A stretch of 28,520 nt of DNA from a virus (taxonomy: Duplodnaviria; Heunggongvirae; Uroviricota; Caudoviricetes). Shown in pieces: positions 542 to 23,343 of this stretch. The translations under genes and the position numbers were made by a program. A model generated the notes under the pieces. The model did no database searches and was not told the DNA's origin. It was given only the letters and a program-made list of their open reading frames with translations. Location: IMG/VR virus record IMGVR_UViG_2657245664_000013, positions 1-28,520 of that record, one strand, 5' to 3'. Numbering within the stretch: the stretch's first letter is position 1; each line of letters begins with the position of its first letter.

Positions 542-1579
542 TTAACGCTTATCCGCCACCAGTTTGAGCGCGTGTTCCAGCACATTAATGTCTGCACCCG
601 CTTTATGGGCATTTTCACTTAAATAACGCCGCCACTGCCGCGCGCCAGGAATACCCTGGAACAAGCCCAACATATGCCGGGTAATATGGCCGAGATACGT
701 CCCCTGGCTGAGTTCACGCTCAATGTACGGATACATGGCGCGCACTACCGCCACCGGATCGGCATCGGTATCCGAGGAACCAAAGATCTCCCGGTCTACC
801 GCCGCCAGAATACCCGGATTCTGATACGCCTCGCGCCCGACCATCACGCCATCCATATGTTGCAGGTGTGCTTTGGCCTCTTCCAGCGACTTGATACCAC
901 CGTTAATCGACATTGTCAGATGCGGAAAGTCACGCTTCAGTTGATACACACGCGGATAATCGAGCGGCGGGATTTCACGGTTTTCTTTCGGGCTTAACCC
1001 CGAAAGCCAGGCTTTACGTGCGTGGATGATGAACATCTCACACTCGCCTTTGCCGGAAACGGTATTGATGAAATCGCAGAGAAATTCATAGCTGTCCTGG
1101 TCGTCGATGCCAATACGCGTTTTCACCGTCACCGGAATCGACACCACATCGCGCATCGCTTTCACGCAGTCGGCAACCAGCTGCGCATTACCCATCAGAC
1201 ACGCACCAAACATGCCGTTCTGCACCCGGTCAGACGGGCAGCCGACATTCAGGTTGATCTCATCATATCCGCGCGCTTCTGCCAGCTTTGCACACTGCGC
1301 CAGCGCCGCCGGATCGCTACCGCCCAGTTGCAACGCTACCGGATGTTCTTCTTCACTGTACGCCAGATAATCACCTTTACCGTGAATAATCGCCCCTGTG
1401 GTCACCATTTCGGTATACAGCAACGTATTGCGGGAAAGCAGACGCAAGAAATAGCGGCAATGTCTGTCCGTCCAGTCGAGCATAGGAGCAATGCTAAACC
1501 GAGAACTCCAGTAAGCGCCAGTTTTTTCAGGCATCACGCTGGTTTGATTAGTTTTCTGTGTTTCAGGATTATCGTGCAT
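542..1579 (-). CDS. dusA: tRNA-dihydrouridine synthase A
   Basis: 345-aa ORF with Dus-family TIM-barrel signature ([47 protein letters not shown]). ATG at 1577-1579. The true start may be the internal Met at 1534 (MPEKT). The 5' end abuts the prophage integrase region. Confidence 0.92.
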
Positions 1580-1667: not shown

Positions 1668-2765
1668 ATGGCGTACTATAACATAGAGAAACGACTAAAA
1701 TCCGATGGCACACCACGCTATCGCTGTAATGTGATTATCAAAGAAAAAGGTGTTATCACTTACAGGGAAAGCAAAACATTCCCTAAACATGCTCATGCCA
1801 AAACATGGGGAACACAGAAAGTGATGGAATTAGATCTATATGGCATTCCATCATCAAATGCAGTTGACGGACTTACAGTCCGTGACTTACTACACAAATA
1901 TTTAAATGACCCAAATGCCGGAGGTAAAGCAGGCCGTACTAAAAGATATGTGCTGGAACTGCTTATGGATAGTGACATCTCCGCGATCAAACTATCTGAA
2001 CTGACAGAAAATGACGTAATTGAACATTGCAGGCTAAGAAACAACGCTGGTGCAGGTCCAGCAACAGTCAGCCACGATGTTAGTTATCTTGGCAGTGTTC
2101 TGGATGCGGCCAAACCTGTATACGGAATTAATTACACATCAAACCCGGCGAAAAGCGCTCGCCCATATCTACTTAAACTTGGTTTGATTGGTAAATCAAA
2201 CCGTCGTAATCGTAGACCAGCATCTGATGAACTGGACATGCTCATTGAAGGCCTTCAACAACGATCTACTCATAAATGCTCAAAAATTCCGTTCGTTGAT
2301 ATCCTCAAATTTTCTGTGTGGTCCTGTATGCGGATCGGAGAAGTATGCCGGTTACGATGGGAAGATCTCGACCAGGAACAAAAATCTATACTCGTAAGAG
2401 ACAGGAAAGATCCACGCAAAAAGGAAGGCAACCACATGAAAGTAGCCTTGCTTGGGGAAGCCTGGGATATCGTCCAACGACAGCCAAAAAAATCGGAATT
2501 CATTTTTCCATATAACAGCACTTCTGTTACTGCAGGATTTCAGAGGGTAAGAAGCAAATTAGGTATTAAAGATCTGCGATACCATGATTTGCGTAGAGAA
2601 GGAGCAAGTCGCTTATTTGAGGCTGGTTTTAGTATTGAGGAAGTCGCTCAGGTTACAGGGCATCGTTCATTAAACGTGCTATGGCAGGTATATACCGAAC
2701 TGTATCCGAAATCTTTACATAATCGTTTTGAAGAGCTCCAAAGGAGCAGAAATAAGACCTCTTGA
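1668..2765 (+). CDS. int: Tyrosine site-specific integrase (DusA-associated integrase family)
   Basis: 365-aa ORF with a C-terminal tyrosine-recombinase catalytic region (MRIGEVCRLRWEDLD ... HDLRREGASRL ... HRSLNVLWQVYTELY). Divergent from and adjacent to dusA, the known target of this integrase family. Confidence 0.92.
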   Translation: MAYYNIEKRLKSDGTPRYRCNVIIKEKGVITYRESKTFPKHAHAKTWGTQKVMELDLYGIPSSNAVDGLTVRDLLHKYLNDPNAGGKAGRTKRYVLELLMDSDISAIKLSELTENDVIEHCRLRNNAGAGPATVSHDVSYLGSVLDAAKPVYGINYTSNPAKSARPYLLKLGLIGKSNRRNRRPASDELDMLIEGLQQRSTHKCSKIPFVDILKFSVWSCMRIGEVCRLRWEDLDQEQKSILVRDRKDPRKKEGNHMKVALLGEAWDIVQRQPKKSEFIFPYNSTSVTAGFQRVRSKLGIKDLRYHDLRREGASRLFEAGFSIEEVAQVTGHRSLNVLWQVYTELYPKSLHNRFEELQRSRNKTS

Positions 2766-2813
2766 CACTGTTTATCCATACAGTTAAAAATAATACTGTA
2801 TACAAACACAGTA
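2762..2813 (+). promoter_or_regulatory. Sigma-70 promoter with two tandem LexA (SOS) boxes controlling the dinI-like gene
   Basis: Perfect -35 TTGACA (2762-2767), 17-nt spacer, -10-like TAAAAA (2785-2790). LexA box 1 CTGT-N8-ACAG at 2768-2783 (in the spacer); box 2 TACTGTATACAAACACAGTA at 2794-2813 (over the predicted start site). Confidence 0.7.
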
Positions 2814-2826
2814 TAGAGGGACTTTT

Positions 2827-3075
2827 ATGCGTATTGAGATCTGCATAGCCAAAGAAAAAATGACTAAAATGCCAAACGGTGCTGTGGATGCGTTAAAGGA
2901 AGAATTAACCCGACGCATCAGTAAACGTTATGACGATGTAGAGGTGATCGTAAAAGCCACCAGCAACGATGGGCTTTCTGTTACACGCACCGCAGATAAA
3001 GATTCTGCAAAAACATTTGTTCAGGAGACTCTGAAAGATACCTGGGAGTCTGCTGACGAGTGGTTTGTTCACTAA
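2827..3075 (+). CDS. dinI: DinI-family protein (SOS-inducible RecA modulator), prophage-encoded
   Basis: 82 aa. Shares the DinI signature with E. coli DinI as recalled (MRIE..IAK....P.GA.DAL..EL.RRI ... LSV ... QET..TWESAD.WFV). SD AGAGGG lies 6 nt upstream of the ATG. Confidence 0.88.
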
Positions 3076-3143
3076 TAAACACGTAAAATCGGTAACGGCT
3101 GAAAATCATTCAATACTCGCACTATCGAAAGTTCACCAGCCAA

Positions 3144-3187
3144 CCGCAGCACGTCCTGCATACGTCGTGTCTGCGGTTTTTCTTTTT
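3144..3187 (+). terminator. Intrinsic terminator after the dinI-like gene
   Basis: Inverted repeat CCGCAGCACG ... CGTGTCTGCGG followed by TTTTTCTTTTT. Lies between the dinI stop and the convergent tfa stop. Confidence 0.6.
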
Positions 3188-3190
3188 CGC

Positions 3191-3775
3191 TTACATTGTG
3201 TCTGGTTCTTCCGGCCACTCAATATCAGGTGCAGTTGATGTATCAACACGATTCAACAACACCCGATATGTCTTCCATGCCGCCAGTAACGATGTCTCTT
3301 CCTCCGTTGCGATTTCCAGATCTGCAGCATCCTGAAGCGGCGCAATATGCTCACTGGCTACCCGCATGAGGCTGTTTTTTGTTTCTTCCGCCTCCCGTAT
3401 CCGAAACAGTTTTTCTGCTTCTGCATCTTTCACCCAGGTTGTGCCGTTCCACTTCTGATATTCCCCATCCGGCGACAACCAGGTGACATTTTCTGGTAAC
3501 GGGCCGAGTTCAGAAATAAATAACGCGTCACCTGATGCCACGTCATAGACCGTTTTTCCCCTGTGGTCTTCAACGAGATGCCATGATGTATCCTTACTGT
3601 TAAAAACAGCCACGAAGCCAGCCGGAATATCTGGCGGTGCAATATCGGTACTATTTGCAGGCAGACCTGTATGAGGGGGAATGTATGCATCACCTTCACC
3701 AATAAATTCATTGGTTCCGGCCAGCAGATTATAAATTTTTATAGTCCGTGGTTGTACACTCATTCTGAATGCCAT
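3191..3775 (-). CDS. tfa: Tail fiber assembly protein (lambda Tfa-like)
   Basis: 194 aa, near-identical in pattern to lambda Tfa as recalled ([59 protein letters not shown]...). ATG at 3773-3775 overlaps the stf stop. Confidence 0.92.
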
Positions 3776-6700
3776 TATGCAAGCCTCACAATATAGTTAA
3801 ATGCGATGTTTTTGACGGTGTTTTCCGCGTTACCAGCAGCGTTTACGGTGATGGTGTGTCCATGTGAACCAATCGCAACGGAGTGTGTATGAGCGCCAAT
3901 ATCAACAGTATGTGCGTGTGCGCCTGCACTTGCAGCAGTACCTGACACCGTGTGGGTATGCGCTCCGGCTGACGATGTGCCAGTACTCGAGTCTGAACGA
4001 GACGCACCTTTGAGGGCTCGATCGCCCTGCTCGGTATTGCCATATGGGTAACAGGCAACCGTGTGTGTATGTGCCCCTGCAGAAGCAGCCGTACCACTGA
4101 CACTATGGGTGTGCGCTCCGGTGTTATTCGTGGACCTGGTACCATAATTAAACGAACTGGTAGTTTTCGTCCCCAAATCCGTACTGGATGCACTGGCACT
4201 GTGGGTATGCGATTTAATGCCGTCCTGTTCCTGAGACAATACGGCCCGACCACTGGCAGGTTTGCCCTTAATCGTCCAGCCACGCATATCAGGGATCACG
4301 CCTGACGGATAAGCCGCTGCAAGTTTCGGGTATGCAGATTTGTCAAAAGCCTGCCCCTGCATCAGGGCATAGCCAGACGGAACGGTATCTGATGGCCACG
4401 GGATTGGTGCGCCGACTGGGTAGCTTTCTGGTGGAAGATTTTTCGAGGTATAAACTTCTGCCCAGTCTTCCTCAAAACCATAACCGTCTCTTGAAGAACG
4501 GTAGAACAGACCACCATTTCTGTAATGCGCCTTCATCTGCAAGGTCCGGCAACTTCCGACTCCGGTATAGAAGTTAACCAGAATATAGCTGTCGCCAGAG
4601 CGGGTGACATTATAAGCGCCTGATTCGGCATTCCAGGGAACGCCACCATCCGCATCGGCATATGTATCCGTTGCCCTTCTGGCAAAAGCGGCCACATGCG
4701 CGGCGGTTAAAGTGATATCAGTAGAACCATCAAATGGAACACCGGATATTTTTCTTGCAGTCTGAAGTTTTGTAGCAGTTGCAGCATTACCAGTGGTGTT
4801 CTGATTACCCGTAGTGTTTACACCTGGAAGGTTAATATTTGCAGAACCGTCGAAAACAACTCCACCGATAGATCTTGCCGTCTGCAATTTCGTGGCTGTA
4901 CTTGCATTACCATTCAATGAACCAGTTAATCCACCTGTAACAGACAACGGACCTGAAACTGTTCCTCCGGTTGTTGGCAGTGCACCAATATCTGATGGTG
5001 TAGGTTTCTGATGTGAGCTATACATCGTATAAACAACACCATAGGTAACGCTGGAAGGCTTACTCGCTGAATATGTTGGCGAGGTATAAACAGAAACTGA
5101 CGCATTTGCAGTACAATCCCAATGGATATTTACACTCGTCGCATATTTGCCAATCTCAACGTAAATATCATATGTATCGCCGGATGTGTTGATCCAGGCG
5201 AAATTCGTTAATCCGACGGCTGTACGCTTCCACAAAGCCCCGGTAATTCCTTTGGGGTTTCCATTGCCTGCTCGTAGAACCAGTTCTGAAATGCCTGCCT
5301 GATGTGGGGAACCGACGTTGTAACCAGCGCCACCAATCAATGCGATGTAAACGATGGAACTCGCTTGTGGCATGGTAACCGTAGCCAGTTTGAACCACCC
5401 AGCCCCGTCAAAGAAAGACATCGTTACTGAATTTAAAGTACCAATATCTTTCGGCGTTAATGTTATATCCGCAGTCAGTGCTTTTCCGTTAACTTTTCGG
5501 TTAGATGGCACCCTGCTATTCGCATTGTCATTGGCTGCTTTAACTGCTTTTGGCGTTGCGGCCAGCGATTCACTGGTGCTATCAACAGCACTGCTAAGTT
5601 TCACAACACCTTTAGTTGTAAGGCTTGCGTCTTCCATCGCAACTGCACCGGCAATCTCTTCAGCACGATCAGCAGCAGCTTCCGCACGGGTCGCAGCGGA
5701 TTCAGCAGCAGTTTTGCTCTGAGATGCTGCCGTCGCACTGCCTGCCGCCTCTGTTGCTTTCGTGGATGCCGTCGTGGCGCTGCCCTTCGCTGCTGACGCC
5801 TGTCTGGTCGCCTCATCTTTTGAAGCAGACGCAGATGATGCCGATGACGCTGCCGAACTGGCGGACGATGCGGCTGCCGTTTTTGAGGATTCTGCACGGG
5901 TTTCCGACGCTTTCGCGTTCGTCTCGGATGTCTTCGCTGCGGAAGCAGACCTCGCTGCTGCACTGGCCTGTTCAGTGGCTTCGCCAGCCTTCGTTGTGGC
6001 TGTTGAAGCAGACGAGGCGGCACTTTCTGCCGACTTTCCGGCAGCGGTGGCACTGGCTGAGGCCTGCCCGGCACTTGTTGACGCGGCACTGGCAGATGAT
6101 GCTGCCGCTGTTTTTGAGCCTGCCGCAGCTGAGGCGCTCTGTCCCGCTGCCGTTTCAGAAGACCTGGCGTTCGTCTCTGACGTTTTTGCCGCCTTCGCGG
6201 AATTGCCTGCCGCCGTTGCCGAGGAGGCTGCACTGCTGGCGCTTGTGGAGGCGTTCGTTTCTGATGATTTTGCCGCCTCTTTGGAGGCAGCCGCATCTCT
6301 GGCTGAAGTGGCGGCTTCTGACGCTTTCGTCGTCGCAGTGGATGCAGAAGTGGCTGCTGATTGTTGTGACGCTGCCGCATTCGTTTCTGACGTTTTCGCG
6401 GCACCGGCACTGGTGGCCGCCGCGCTTTTTGAGGACTCTGCAGCGGCAGCACTTTTTGACGCTTCCGTGGCCTTTGTTGATGCCGTTCCTGCGCTGGAAG
6501 AAGCCTCCTGAGCCGACGTCGCGGCCTGTCCGGCTGACGTGCTGGCTGCACGTGCTGAATCTGCAGCATCAGTCGCATGGGTTGCCGCCTCACTGGCTGA
6601 TGTGCCGGCATCACTGGCTGACTTCTTCGCGGCTGCCGTGTTCTGTGCCACTGCGGACGCGTTACGCGCCACCTCTTCCACCATCAGTTCAAAACGGCGC

Positions 6701-7008
6701 AGTGCCTCCGGACGGGCATCATCCTCCGTCATGGCACCGAGAAAATCATTCAGCGTCCCCGGCTTTGAATCCTCATACACGGTGATGGTCCCGGCATGTG
6801 ACGGCGGGAATCCTTCCACCATCAGAATAACGCTGTACTGACCGTACTCAACGTCCATGCTGTAACGCCCGGCTTCATCCGGATTTTCTGAGGCCAGCGT
6901 GTTCACCACGACCGTGGTACTGTTACGTTTTGCCTTCAGCTGAATGGTGCAGTTCTGTACCGGTTTCCCTGTGCCGTCTTTCAGTACACCTGAAATCTTT
7001 ACTGCCAT
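3775..7008 (-). CDS. stf: Side tail fiber protein (lambda Stf-like N-terminus, long Ala/Ser/Thr-rich region, fibre-repeat central part, His-rich gp37-like C-terminus)
   Basis: N-terminus [26 protein letters not shown] matches lambda Stf. C-terminus carries repeated GAHTHxV motifs and ends [18 protein letters not shown]. The track start at 7014 is GTG; the ATG at 7006-7008 with upstream GGGGTGA is preferred. Confidence 0.9.
5634..6654 (-). repeat. About 1 kb in-frame low-complexity coding repeat (A/S/T-rich, recurring AKTSETNA / SAATSAS units) inside stf
   Basis: Roughly 340 aa of degenerate tandem Ala-Ser-Thr units. The GC-rich repetitive codons generate long spurious ORFs in other frames and on the opposite strand. 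Confidence 0.75.
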
Positions 7009-7017
7009 ATTCACCCC

Positions 7018-7739: not shown

Positions 7740-10700
7740 TCAGCTAATCGTGATGCCTGCAGTGGCTTTCTTCATCACCACAACCAGCAAATCGCTGATA
7801 CTTGCTGTGGGATAATAACGCCCGTGTGACGCAGAAACTGAAAACTCCAGAGTTATTCCTCCAGAACCGGCAGGCATATCCATGATACCTGTGTAAATGG
7901 CTGTGACATCGGTGGTCGATCTGTCATAAATTACAGAACCATTCTTTTTTACAACAAGACGACAGGATGAATAAGTCTCGTTATCCCCCCGCCCATGTTT
8001 AGCGCCACGAAACGCCACCGCGGGAATAACAATCTGCCGGTCAAACGGCTGATCGTCATAAATCCTGACGGTAATGGTCCCTGATGGCCACCGTTCCGGT
8101 GCACGGGAGTCCCGGGGGAAAGCTTTGCCCACTGTTTTAACGAGATCGCCTTCAATCTGGTTCGCGGACAGTTTTCCCAGAACCCGGCAGTTCTCGTTAA
8201 TCGTGACGTTGTTGAGCGTCCCGGAGTTCGCATTCACGTTACCGCTGATATCGGCATTTTTCGCCGTCAGCCGCCCGTCCGGTGTCAGGGAAAATGCCGG
8301 AGGATTACCGCCGCTGGTAATGGTGGGAGCCGTCAGATATTTCAGGAACACTTCATTCATAAATATCTGATCGCCCTGACCAACAAACATCGGCTTTGTG
8401 TTGCCATTCGCAGGATTAACCATCGCAATCCTGTCCGCCGCCAGCAGCACCTGACTCTGCATGCCGTCAGGGGTGTTCTCAATACCGGCACCAATACCCG
8501 CGATATAAAGGCGTCCGTCCTGCATCTGCTGCAGCTTCACTGCCCACATGCTGTTCAGGTTATTATTTGTATCAACCTGAACTTTCTGTATCTGCTGGAT
8601 TGCCGCACTCTGGTCTTCCAGTTTTTTATTGACGGTCTGCGTGATTTCATTGCTGACATTCGTAATGGACGTCCTGATTTCAGCCAGGTCCGGCGCAAGC
8701 TGACCGTTATCAATCTGCGTCCACAACTCCTGGGCCAGATGTGTTTTCCCGATTTCTCCTTTGAAAAAATCCAGGTAACCTTCCGCATCATCGCTCGCCC
8801 GACCGACGGCCTCCACGAATGCCGATTTGCCAACGGTGTTCACACTGCGGATATAAAAGTAATAATCATGGCCCGGTTTGATATTGATACTGGCGGCTAT
8901 CCAGTACAGCCCCGTGCCAAGGTAGCGGGCTGTGGTTTCAACCTGCCTGATATCGGTAATCCGCGTTTCCGAGAACCAGAACTCAAACTGTACCGTCGGA
9001 TCATAAACCGCAAGATGCGGCGTGGCGGTTATCTGAAAATAGCCCGGCGTCAGCTCAATCCTCGACGGTGCTGCCGGTGCGGCAATCCGGAACGATACCG
9101 ACGCCGGATCGCCCTGCTGCCCCCGGGCATTTACCGCCCGGACTGTCAGCCTGTAGTTCCCCAGCGCCAGTTGCGTGAAGCGGTATGTGGTTTCCGTCGT
9201 CCGGGCCGTGCTGACCAGTCGCTCACTGCCGTCGTCCGCTGTTACGGTCAGACGGAGCAGGAAGCTCACGCCCTTCACCACCTTCGGTGTGTCCCATCGC
9301 GCCAGCACCTGATATTCCCCGCTGTCTGCAGTGACTTCGGCGGTCAGGTGCTGCACTGCTGGCGGCGTGACACCATTCACCGTGCCGCTCTGGTCACCGT
9401 CAAAGTGCGCCCCGTTATCCACGATGGCTTCTTTCTCCGGTACATGCTGCACGGCGGTGATGGCATACGTGCCGTCATCGTTCTCACGGATACTCACGCA
9501 GCGGAACAGGCGCTGGCGCAGCGTCGGCAGCTTCAGCCCCCACACGCTGTATTCTGCAACGCCGTCAGGAACACGGCTCACTTTCACCTTCACGCCGTCG
9601 GTGACGGACTGGACCTCCACGCTGACCGGATTACCCTGACCGTCAACCAGGCTTATCAGCGTGGTACCGGAGGATGGCAGCGTGATTTCACGGTCGAGCG
9701 TCAGCGTCCGGGTCTGGCTGTTCACCGCCAGCACGCGCCCGCCGGTGCTGATACCCGCATAGTCATCATCGCAGATTTCAATGACATCCCCCGGTACATG
9801 GCGAAGCCCTTCGGCACCCACGCTGAAGTCCACGGTCTGCGTTTCCAGCAGTTCTGTTTTAATCAGCCACAGCCCGGCGCGGTGCGCCTGCCCCCGGCTG
9901 GTACAGCCAAAGGCATCCATCTTCGTGACGTTACGACCGTAACGGGCAATGGCCTGCGTATCTTCAACAAGCTCTGTCGCCGTCTCCCAGCCGTTGTTCG
10001 GATCAATCCAGTTAACCTCAACGGCATTATGGCGGTCCTTCAGGGCGCTGAAGCTGTAGCGGAACGGCGCGCCATCATCCGGCATCACCACATTACTGCG
10101 GTTATAGGTCCACACCTTATCTGATGGTCGGTCCTGCACGAACGTCAGCGTCTGCCCGTTCCATACCGGCATACAGCGCATCGCCGAGCAGAAATCACTG
10201 AGCACATCCCACGCCTTGCGCTGTGTGGTCAGGTACGCATTACAGGTGATGCGCGGCTCCGTGCCGCCAAAGCCGTCCGGCACTGACTGGTCGCAGTACT
10301 GGCCGATGACATACAGCGCCCATTTATCCACATCCGCCGCACCAAGACGTTTCCCCATGCCGTAGCGCGGGTGGGTCAGCATATCCCACAGACACCAGGC
10401 CATGTTGTTGCTGTATGCCGGTTTAAACGTTCCGTCCCAGATACCGCTGTATTGCCGCGTCTGCGGGTTATAATTCGACGGCACCTGCAGAATACGCCCG
10501 CGCAGATGATAATTACGGCTCACCTGCTGGCTGCCGAACTGCTCCGAGTCCACCTGCACGCCGACCAGTGCCGTGTTCGGGTAGCACTGTTTCACATCGA
10601 TGATTTCTGTGTATGACGACCAGAGCGTTTTGTTCTGCAGCTGGTCTGTGGTGCTGTCCGGCGTCATCCTGCGCATCCGGATATTAAACGGGCGCGGCGG

Positions 10701-22124: not shown

Positions 22125-23343
22125 CGTTCTTTTCCTCTTTGCCTTTCGTATCTTTAAAGTTATTCAACGGATTTGCTGCATTTACGCTGACCAGCATTTC
22201 ATCCAGACCGTCAACCGGGTTCATATCCTCAAATGCCCTGGCTTCATTCCGACTCATCCAGCCATCTGTAATGGCAAAGTGATAGAACTGCGCACGCTCC
22301 TGTGGGGTCCCACGGAGCAACCCCGTGAGGTTGAAACGAACGTAATACCCGGCAGCCCGTTCTGTACGGGTAAACAGGCGACGGTTAAGCTCCTGCTCCC
22401 AGTTCGCAACCCAGGGCATCATCGTGTAGCGAACAAACTGAATCGCCTGCTGCGTAATATTCGAAAATGTGGCTTTTTCCAGGTCATTAATCATGTGCGC
22501 CGGGACATTAAAAATCCCGGCAATCATCGACCGGTTCAGCTTGGTCATATCAATGATCTGAGCATCCACCGGAGAAACTGTCAGAGCGCGGTAATCCAGT
22601 TGCGCAGGCAGCAACATGGTTTTATTTTCCTGGCTGCGAAGCGCTGTCACCGCCCGCTGCCACATATTTTTAAGCCTGCCCCAGCTTTGTTCGTTCAGTT
22701 CATTTTTCACAGAAATAATACCGGCAGGACGGGCATTACCGTTAAAAAAGGCGCTGGTATACTGCTGGCCACTCATTCCCATACCAATGGTTTCAGCATG
22801 CTGCATGATCGGGCTCAGTCCCATTTTCTGATTGTTTCCCAGCGCCCTGATATGGATCATGTCGTCCGGACTTACCGCAAATGCACCCTCTTCGTTATAC
22901 ACCCCGTAAGTATGACGCCCACCGGTGTTAAGTAACGTGGTTTCCCATGGCATACAGCATTCAAGGCTGGTAACCTCTCCACGACGATTACGTTTTACCC
23001 ACGTATAACCATTGCCCCACCCCAGCACATGACGCTGCTTCAGTTCCCGCCACTTATAGCTGGTCTGCCAGGCATTAGGTTCATCATGAACGAGCCAGAA
23101 CAACGGATGATCGCGTGCCGGCTGAACATGCTCATTCGTTTTTCGCATCACATGCAGGGGCATCTGAGCCACACTGGATGAAATAACATAAATACAGGCA
23201 TAGACAGCAGCCAGCTTCATGGATGTTTCCGGACTGACATACACATCCCGGGCAAAAATATTATCCGTCTCAGCGGCCTCTCCGGTTACCGGAACCGAGG
23301 GATTTTCCAGAGGCTCACTGCGAAACAGAGCATCAAGAAGCAT
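22117..23343 (-). CDS. Portal protein (HK97 family)
   Basis: 408 aa. Positioned between terL and the protease, with the SD GAGGAG 7 nt upstream of the ATG. C-terminus is acidic (KGKEEKNDE). Confidence 0.92.
   Translation of the reverse strand: MLLDALFRSEPLENPSVPVTGEAAETDNIFARDVYVSPETSMKLAAVYACIYVISSSVAQMPLHVMRKTNEHVQPARDHPLFWLVHDEPNAWQTSYKWRELKQRHVLGWGNGYTWVKRNRRGEVTSLECCMPWETTLLNTGGRHTYGVYNEEGAFAVSPDDMIHIRALGNNQKMGLSPIMQHAETIGMGMSGQQYTSAFFNGNARPAGIISVKNELNEQSWGRLKNMWQRAVTALRSQENKTMLLPAQLDYRALTVSPVDAQIIDMTKLNRSMIAGIFNVPAHMINDLEKATFSNITQQAIQFVRYTMMPWVANWEQELNRRLFTRTERAAGYYVRFNLTGLLRGTPQERAQFYHFAITDGWMSRNEARAFEDMNPVDGLDEMLVSVNAANPLNNFKDTKGKEEKNDE

Follow-up and report, generated by a model that had tools for sequence, protein, structure and literature searches.

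The window analyzed here, a 28,520-nucleotide (nt) stretch of a tailed-phage record (IMG/VR virus record IMGVR_UViG_2657245664_000013, positions 1 to 28,520), contains a dinI-like gene in a compact cassette (2762–3190) that sits between a dusA-type integrase gene (int) and the convergent tail fiber genes of a lambdoid prophage. The cassette is real, is widespread in E. coli prophages and belongs to an already described kind, the SOS-controlled prophage DinI morons. Taking the explanation as a whole, we consider it quite probable that the cassette is a self-contained, LexA-controlled DinI moron that is induced by DNA damage and damps the co-protease activity of RecA. An earlier note, made from the sequence alone, had described a DinI-family gene behind a promoter with two LexA operators, and had proposed that it is repressed by host LexA, induced upon DNA damage and able to tune the SOS response or the induction of the prophage. 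This interpretation is supported overall, although its functional claims (LexA repression, induction by damage, tuning of the SOS response or the prophage) are ones that we infer. The additions made here are modest: a two-operator promoter, whose conservation emerged when relatives were compared, and exact boundaries for the cassette. The features of the cassette are the following:

2762–2767, plus strand: −35 hexamer TTGACA, the left edge of the cassette (sequence and promoter scan; invariant in 14 of 14 distinct two-box sequences, the window included)
2766–2785, no strand assigned: LexA box 1, CACTGTTTATCCATACAGTT (core CTGTTTATCCATACAG, 2768–2783; 22.3 bits on the LexA matrix)
2785–2791, plus strand: predicted −10 region TAAAAAT, between the boxes (promoter scan; an A/T-rich hexamer fills this gap in all relatives)
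2794–2813, no strand assigned: LexA box 2, TACTGTATACAAACACAGTA (core CTGTATACAAACACAG, 2796–2811; 24.5 bits on the LexA matrix, more than any other site in the window)
2815–2821, plus strand: ribosome-binding site AGAGGGA (sequence; a purine-rich block lies at the same place in relatives)
2827–3075, plus strand: DinI-like open reading frame (ORF) of 82 residues (Pfam DinI, PF06183, 70.8 bits against a cut-off of 24.2, profile positions 1–63 of 63)
3142–3190, plus strand: intrinsic terminator, the right edge of the cassette, with a stem-loop at 3142–3178 followed by a T-run, abutting the stop codon of the tail fiber assembly gene (tfa) (folding)

The two boxes were scored, as the earlier note had proposed, with a LexA matrix, in this case a symmetrized one drawn up from the 18 E. 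coli boxes given in PMC3009722 (Table 4). When each of the 18 known boxes was left out in turn, the scores ranged from 4.3 to 28.8 bits, and both sites in the window fall inside this range of functional boxes. With all 18 boxes in the matrix, recA scored 23.2, dinI 22.9, sulA 22.8 and lexA 21.2 bits; the two sites in the window are on a par with, or higher than, the boxes of recA, sulA and dinI. On the same matrix, the background of the window was −34 ± 11 bits; after the two boxes, the next site in the 28.5 kb reached 9.6 bits. On a heterology-type index, which has the form of the classical index of Lewis et al. but was derived from the 18 published sites, box 1 came to 5.77 and box 2 to 2.82, with known sites ranging from 0.27 to 9.29. 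The pattern CTGT-N8-ACAG occurs four times in the window, against an expectation of 0.30, and none of 100 shuffles reached four; the shuffles and the matrix scores together rule out the two boxes as chance matches. The other two occurrences (7921–7936 and 22362–22377) scored 7.2 and 6.8 bits and lie within long minus-strand ORFs; because of these low scores and this location, they are probably due to chance. By score, then, both sites in the cassette are strong LexA boxes, at which we infer that LexA is bound.

The relation of the boxes to the promoter is also as the earlier note had it, with a perfect −35 TTGACA preceding two CTGT-N8-ACAG sites, and both the coordinates and the promoter scan place one operator in the spacer and the other over the predicted start. 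Box 1 fills the spacer between the −35 and −10 elements and box 2 overlies the predicted transcription start, so that together they bracket the −10 of the predicted promoter, spanning roughly −33 to −14 and −4 to +16 relative to that start. The inter-box stretch, TTAAAAATAATA, contains two −10 candidates, TAAAAA (2785–2790, with a spacer of 17) and AAAAAT (2786–2791, with a spacer of 18); with the latter, the predicted promoter matches the consensus at 10 of 12 positions. The closest phage record, that of mEp460, independently annotates a promoter at the equivalent of 2762–2790. At the other end of the cassette, the terminator folds with −27.8 kcal/mol (z = −2.5) into a hairpin followed by TTTTTCTTTTTC. 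A consensus terminator scan of the region returned no terminator, since the loop of this hairpin is longer than 8 nt. The terminator fills the gap of 115 base pairs (bp) between the dinI stop codon and the convergent tfa stop codon.

Relatives of the DinI-like protein were gathered by protein similarity alone, from an IMG/VR set and from a set with one genome per species (the alignment included E. coli DinI). The two-box arrangement, on which the earlier note had built its reading, was kept in diverged relatives that had been found through the protein and not through the boxes. Near-identical copies of the gene had 25 distinct upstream sequences, in which the CTGT/ACAG arms were kept and variation appeared in the box interiors (TTATCCAT, TTATTTAT, TTATTCAT, TTATTTGT and TTATCTAT). 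Of the 17 species-level loci with at least 58% identity, 13 had a pair of boxes that each scored 12 bits or more, lying near −60 and −34 relative to the ATG. These loci come from Escherichia, Pantoea, Trabulsiella, Mixta and Erwinia as well as from some oddly labelled assemblies. DinI loci with 51% identity or less, which are probably mostly chromosomal dinI, had a single strong box about 39 nt before the ATG in 52 of 61 cases.

Fourteen distinct two-box sequences, including that of the window, were then compared base by base. TTGACACTG was invariant, and there was no conservation in the 12 nt upstream of the −35. The interior of box 1 was variable and its CAG arm invariant; box 2 retained TG..CAGT and ended 13–15 nt before the ATG. 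Conserved CTG/CAG arms with drifting interiors are the pattern expected for recognition by LexA. A search of viral contigs for the architecture TTGACACTGT-N9-CAG-N4-14-CTGT-N9-CAG returned 119 instances, 114 of which precede a DinI-like ORF; of the remaining five, two were G+C-rich matches due to chance, two lay at contig ends, and for one the script had assigned the wrong ORF. Thus, taken with the promoters of the relatives, the two-operator promoter is conserved, and it is specific to this clade of prophage DinI genes.

The identification of the ORF as a DinI family member, made in the earlier note, was borne out by its match to PF06183, by its match to PHROG 189 (“RecA filament binding protein DinI”, E = 4e-31), and by an end-to-end alignment of residues 1–81 with residues 1–79 of E. 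coli DinI (structures 1GHH and 7YWA; E = 7.9e-13). The protein is 49% identical to E. coli DinI, consists of a single domain of DinI size with no extra domain, and is 100% identical to the proteins of phages cdtI and 2H10. In the RecA–DinI complex determined by cryo-electron microscopy and confirmed by mutation, DinI residues L13, L21, W71, W77 and F78 form a pocket for RecA F203, while E24, E69 and D76 form an acidic patch that faces RecA K232, R243 and K245 (PMC9926225). The equivalent residues in the DinI-like protein are M15, L23, W73, W79 and F80 in the pocket, and E26, D71 and E78 in the acidic patch. In the alignment with E. coli DinI, five of these eight RecA-contact positions are thus identical and three are conservative replacements, which makes binding to the RecA filament a well-founded expectation and also argues for the family assignment. 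We predict with moderate confidence that the protein binds in the groove of the RecA filament as DinI does. In two E. coli variants of the protein (P0001 and P0003), an internal stretch of 30 or 26 residues is duplicated in tandem, resulting in lengths of 112 and 108 residues.

The cassette is found in many settings. Copies 94–97% identical to the window occur behind at least five unrelated upstream sequences, and in at least five contexts the boxes accompany dinI and not int. When positions 2300–3600 of the window were compared by BLAST with the fetched loci, the left ends of the homology fell at 2759–2766 and the right ends clustered at 3149, 3164–3169 and 3179–3187, a span that corresponds to the stretch from the −35 to the terminator; even loci that were only 71% identical spanned 2761–3174 or 2761–3182. 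As in other morons, a promoter (2762–2791) and a terminator (3142–3190) of its own flank a gene that is not needed by the neighboring operons. With this promoter and terminator, and with its recurrence in at least five upstream contexts, the cassette behaves as a moron. Of 5426 complete E. coli genomes, 1809 carried the cassette by itself (2758–3078), among them those of strains EDL933 and UTI89, with a median of one copy and a maximum of seven, almost always in the chromosome. The int–dinI unit joined to the structural gene set of this window was not found in any complete E. coli genome of the collection. The best genome matches to the structural genes of the window start only at position 3120 or later, indicating that the cassette's right edge coincides with a mosaic junction (≈3120–3215). 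A prophage of strain C311 has an identical cassette and a different head and terminase region.

These observations suggest how the cassette might work. In an undamaged lysogen, dimers of host LexA would sit on both operators and cover the core promoter, and RNA polymerase would thereby be excluded. Control would be independent of the prophage's own repressor. Upon DNA damage, RecA would be activated, LexA would cleave itself and the promoter would fire, giving a transcript predicted to end at the terminator before it could run antisense into the tail fiber genes. We have high confidence in these steps, from the occupancy of both operators by LexA in undamaged cells to the end of the transcript. 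The additional, damage-timed DinI would stabilize RecA filaments and compete with the substrates of the co-protease. LexA, UmuD and lambda CI use the same features of the RecA groove as DinI (PMC9926225), and the related phage mEp460 has a repressor of the S24-peptidase type. For these two reasons, the reading that we prefer, albeit with low confidence, is that of a damage-timed competitor that would damp or delay both UmuD processing and cleavage of an S24-type repressor, and would thus set the damage threshold for induction; a filament-stabilizing feed-forward is the main alternative.

The second operator may provide fuller coverage of the promoter and later release. Tight repression from the dual operator, as the earlier note suggested, is plausible. 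However, the distance between the boxes varies from 24 to 29 bp among the 14 two-box sequences, which argues against phase-dependent cooperative binding, and repression need not be tighter because the operator is dual.

This variable spacing is one of several points that weigh against the proposed mechanism. The −10 is weak (4 of 6 positions), and the start site is a predicted one. The open-access literature yielded no experiment on either the promoter or the protein. In the only genetic test found, which concerned the more distant dinI homologues of Gifsy prophages, non-polar deletions in Gifsy-1 and Gifsy-3 left induction without significant change, and the role of DinI has been called elusive (PMC3121763). 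The sign of the effect is uncertain, because DinI both stabilizes filaments and inhibits the co-protease. Finally, the type of repressor in this prophage is taken from mEp460 as the only proxy, since the immunity region falls beyond the ends of the window and no more of the prophage was recovered.

The last but one of these points leads to the strongest rival, in which the regulation is the same but its outcome is reversed: the protein would mainly stabilize RecA filaments, prolong RecA activity and speed up repressor cleavage, in a feed-forward to induction. DinI indeed raises the number and length of RecA filaments (PMC9926225), and the residues involved in filament binding are all conserved in the DinI-like protein. 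However, since DinI shares groove features with LexA, UmuD and lambda CI (PMC9926225), added copies should compete with them; DinI has been described as a co-protease inhibitor (PMC10575684); and the Gifsy dinI deletions produced neither effect (PMC3121763). We consider this reversed outcome rather unlikely.

An antirepressor-type switch would have a quite different logic. Here, the cassette would be the sensor arm of a system like the dinI–antirepressor–irsA operon of Gifsy-1, -2 and -3 or like Tum in phage 186, in which cleavage of LexA switches on an antirepressor made from the same transcript, and the antirepressor disables the repressor of the prophage. Tum does resemble DinI in its second half (PMC3121763), but the 115 bp between the dinI stop and the convergent tfa stop are filled by the terminator and leave no space for a second gene. 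The sole plus-strand ORF there (3065–3238, TTG start, 57 residues) passes through the terminator into tfa, and an antirepressor operon was rejected because no credible ORF lies in the stretch from the dinI stop (3075) to the terminator. Moreover, the protein is of DinI size and lacks any extra domain, the homology of the cassette stops at the terminator in other contexts, the related mEp460 has a cleavable S24-type repressor, and the DinI of Gifsy-2, which comes from a single-box clade, shares only 42.5% identity. A switch of this type is very unlikely.

It is hardly more credible that something other than RecA is the main target of the protein, which could, for example, be an acidic DNA mimic that blocks a host defense or another DNA-binding protein. 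The C-terminal acidic helix of DinI is regarded as a DNA mimic, according to the title of a reference cited in PMC3121763, and DinI-like proteins are mentioned in a paper about DNA mimicry (PMC3439906), but none of the eight RecA-contact positions is lost, those of the hydrophobic pocket for RecA F203 among them, and control by LexA is consistent with an SOS-related role. Least probable of all is that the palindromes arose by chance or are features unrelated to LexA (for example, remnants of arm sites for the integrase, or sites that a phage protein uses) and that the gene is constitutive or expressed by read-through from int: the sites do lie directly 3′ of int, and mEp460 and the C311 prophage encode a protein with only a LexA-type domain that might use such sites, but on the matrix they score as high as well-established boxes and far above chance expectation, the boxes move with dinI rather than with int in at least five contexts, and the conserved arms and drifting interiors are those of LexA recognition.

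The protein with a LexA-type domain is an observation in its own right. It comprises 108 residues and consists of a LexA-type DNA-binding domain (PF01726, 69 bits) with no S24 cleavage domain. Its gene was located in the nin region, which lies beyond the window, of two relatives that carry the same dinI cassette:

L164:14426–14752, plus strand: LexA-domain-only protein, gene 046 of mEp460
L285:9055–9381, minus strand: LexA-domain-only protein of the E. coli C311 prophage at dusA

The protein is 43% identical to LexA residues 1–86 and retains the recognition-helix motif RS.NAA.EHL. Possibly, it binds the same operators without being cleavable, and might re-close them during lytic growth.

The same gene, with 94–100% protein identity, is present in mEp460 (gp21), cdtI (gp30), 2H10, VT1-Sakai (H0001) and many phages that encode Shiga toxin (Stx1 or Stx2), in which it likewise lies at the prophage end, beside the tail fiber genes or int. 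Among the records of these phages that were examined or listed, there is no annotation of a LexA site; mEp460 annotates the promoter. The gene is already annotated as DinI or DinI-like in thousands of RefSeq genomes. No description of the two-box promoter of this clade was found in the open-access literature, which is a weak negative.

Among more distant systems, the Gifsy-1, -2 and -3 prophages of Salmonella (Lemire et al. 2011, PMC3121763) similarly have a damage-induced DinI homologue behind a LexA box that overlaps the promoter. The Gifsy dinI homologues accumulate after mitomycin C (PMC3121763), and the presence of the LexA box has also been reported elsewhere (PMC8072944). However, the DinI of Gifsy-2, which is 42.5% identical to the protein in the window, has a single box (see also PMC8072944), and the Gifsy dinI genes lie downstream of replication genes and are followed by an antirepressor gene, whereas the dinI of the window is monocistronic and lies beside int and the tail fiber genes. 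Tum, from phage 186, is also the product of a LexA-controlled phage gene and has a DinI-like C-terminal half (PMC3121763), but it is 146 residues long and includes an antirepressor half, while the protein in the window is DinI only.

Gene 22 of phage phiKO2 (Klebsiella oxytoca) is closer in its arrangement, since it is likewise a monocistronic DinI-like gene convergent with tail genes. The GenBank record of phiKO2 annotates a −35, a −10, a LexA site and a terminator for this gene. The phiKO2 dinI-like gene is reported as LexA-regulated in a Serratia phage paper (PMC7556043), and that paper notes the same arrangement. The promoter of phiKO2 is laid out as in the window, with TTGACA, 16 nt ending in ACAG, TATAAA and then a box. 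However, only the box at the start site is intact (26.1 bits), the spacer keeps the right arm alone, and the protein has diverged much further.

The chromosomal dinI gene of E. coli and other Enterobacterales is also a member of the family, with 49% identity and the RecA-contact residues in common. This SOS gene likewise has a LexA box, some 39 nt ahead of the ATG, but it is a core gene rather than a mobile cassette and has one strong box instead of two. The operator of recA has the same geometry as box 1, its 25-mer GATACTGTATGAGCATACAGTATAA showing a −35 that abuts CTGT and a −10 after ACAG. The recN and lexA promoters each contain several LexA boxes (PMC8072944); recN, lexA and recA are different genes, however, and the spacing of the boxes in the clade of the window is not fixed (24–29 bp). 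In one array study (PMC2817434), a dinI-like locus of strain CFT073 (c0943) was among the genes that changed along with sulA, umuD, recN and dinI.

By itself, the single locus adds little: annotation of the gene already exists, and phage dinI genes are established as being under LexA control. If the explanation is true, however, about one third of E. coli strains would carry between one and seven extra SOS-inducible RecA-filament binders on their prophages, including Shiga-toxin phages. These proteins could then shift the amount of DNA damage needed for prophage induction and toxin release, and could also shift SOS mutagenesis after exposure to quinolones. A comparative study has flagged a prophage DinI-like gene among loci linked to the evolution of quinolone resistance (PMC10575684). 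The conservation of the two-operator cassette and its frequent presence in multiple copies (one third of complete E. coli genomes, with a maximum of seven) also gave rise to a more speculative idea, namely that the prophage DinI-like proteins jointly form a dose-dependent, late-firing brake on the RecA co-protease, which would set the induction threshold of co-resident prophages with S24-type repressors, Stx phages included, and would limit UmuD-dependent mutagenesis. We think this joint brake doubtful.

The earlier note had placed the gene between int and the tail fiber genes. Pfam and the annotation of relatives agree with this placement, and the coordinates are exact. The neighboring genes are the following:

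542–1579, minus strand: gene with a Dus domain (dusA; Pfam)
1668–2765, plus strand: tyrosine integrase of the dusA-inserting type (Pfam Phage_integrase, 74.6 bits; annotated as an integrase in mEp460 and beside dusA in E. coli genomes)
3191–3775, minus strand: tfa, convergent with the cassette (Pfam Caudo_TAP, 148 bits)
3775–7014, minus strand: side tail fiber ORF of 1079 residues (annotation of relatives)

The stop codon of int, TGA (2763–2765), falls within the −35 hexamer of the cassette. The prophage lies at the 5′ end of dusA, and int reads away from dusA (542–2765). In the C311 prophage, a dusA fragment at L285:23162–23266 marks the far end, which is typical of dusA-specific integrases. 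Two loci with the cassette in other contexts (L084 and L087) have repeated ATGCCCCA-type motifs, such as catacatgcccc-cattgatgccccataa, about 40–100 nt upstream of the −35; these might be arm-type sites for a recombinase beside an attachment site. In a near-identical prophage of E. coli JX2 (L002:4592–7035), a small recombinase gene and oppositely oriented tfa genes lie to the right of the cassette, an arrangement that suggests an invertible tail fiber segment and that has no counterpart in the window.

Enterobacterial-type dinI cassettes were also present at loci L085, L089, L090 and L128, in assemblies labelled Chryseobacterium, Saccharibacteria (a metagenome-assembled genome), Wohlfahrtiimonas (likewise metagenome-assembled) and Vagococcus; contamination or mis-binning is the likely explanation.

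The sole Rfam match in the window, to IS009 (RF02111, 199 bits; 3234–3432, minus strand), lies outside the cassette. Since it falls wholly inside the coding sequence of tfa, this “sRNA” (small RNA) family may simply be conserved prophage coding sequence. The side tail fiber ORF, especially at ≈5600–6800, includes a long, repetitive stretch rich in Ala, Ser and Thr, in which units similar to AAKTSETNA recur; this stretch gives rise to long spurious ORFs in other frames, for example at 5601–6614 (minus strand) and 5625–6785 (plus strand).

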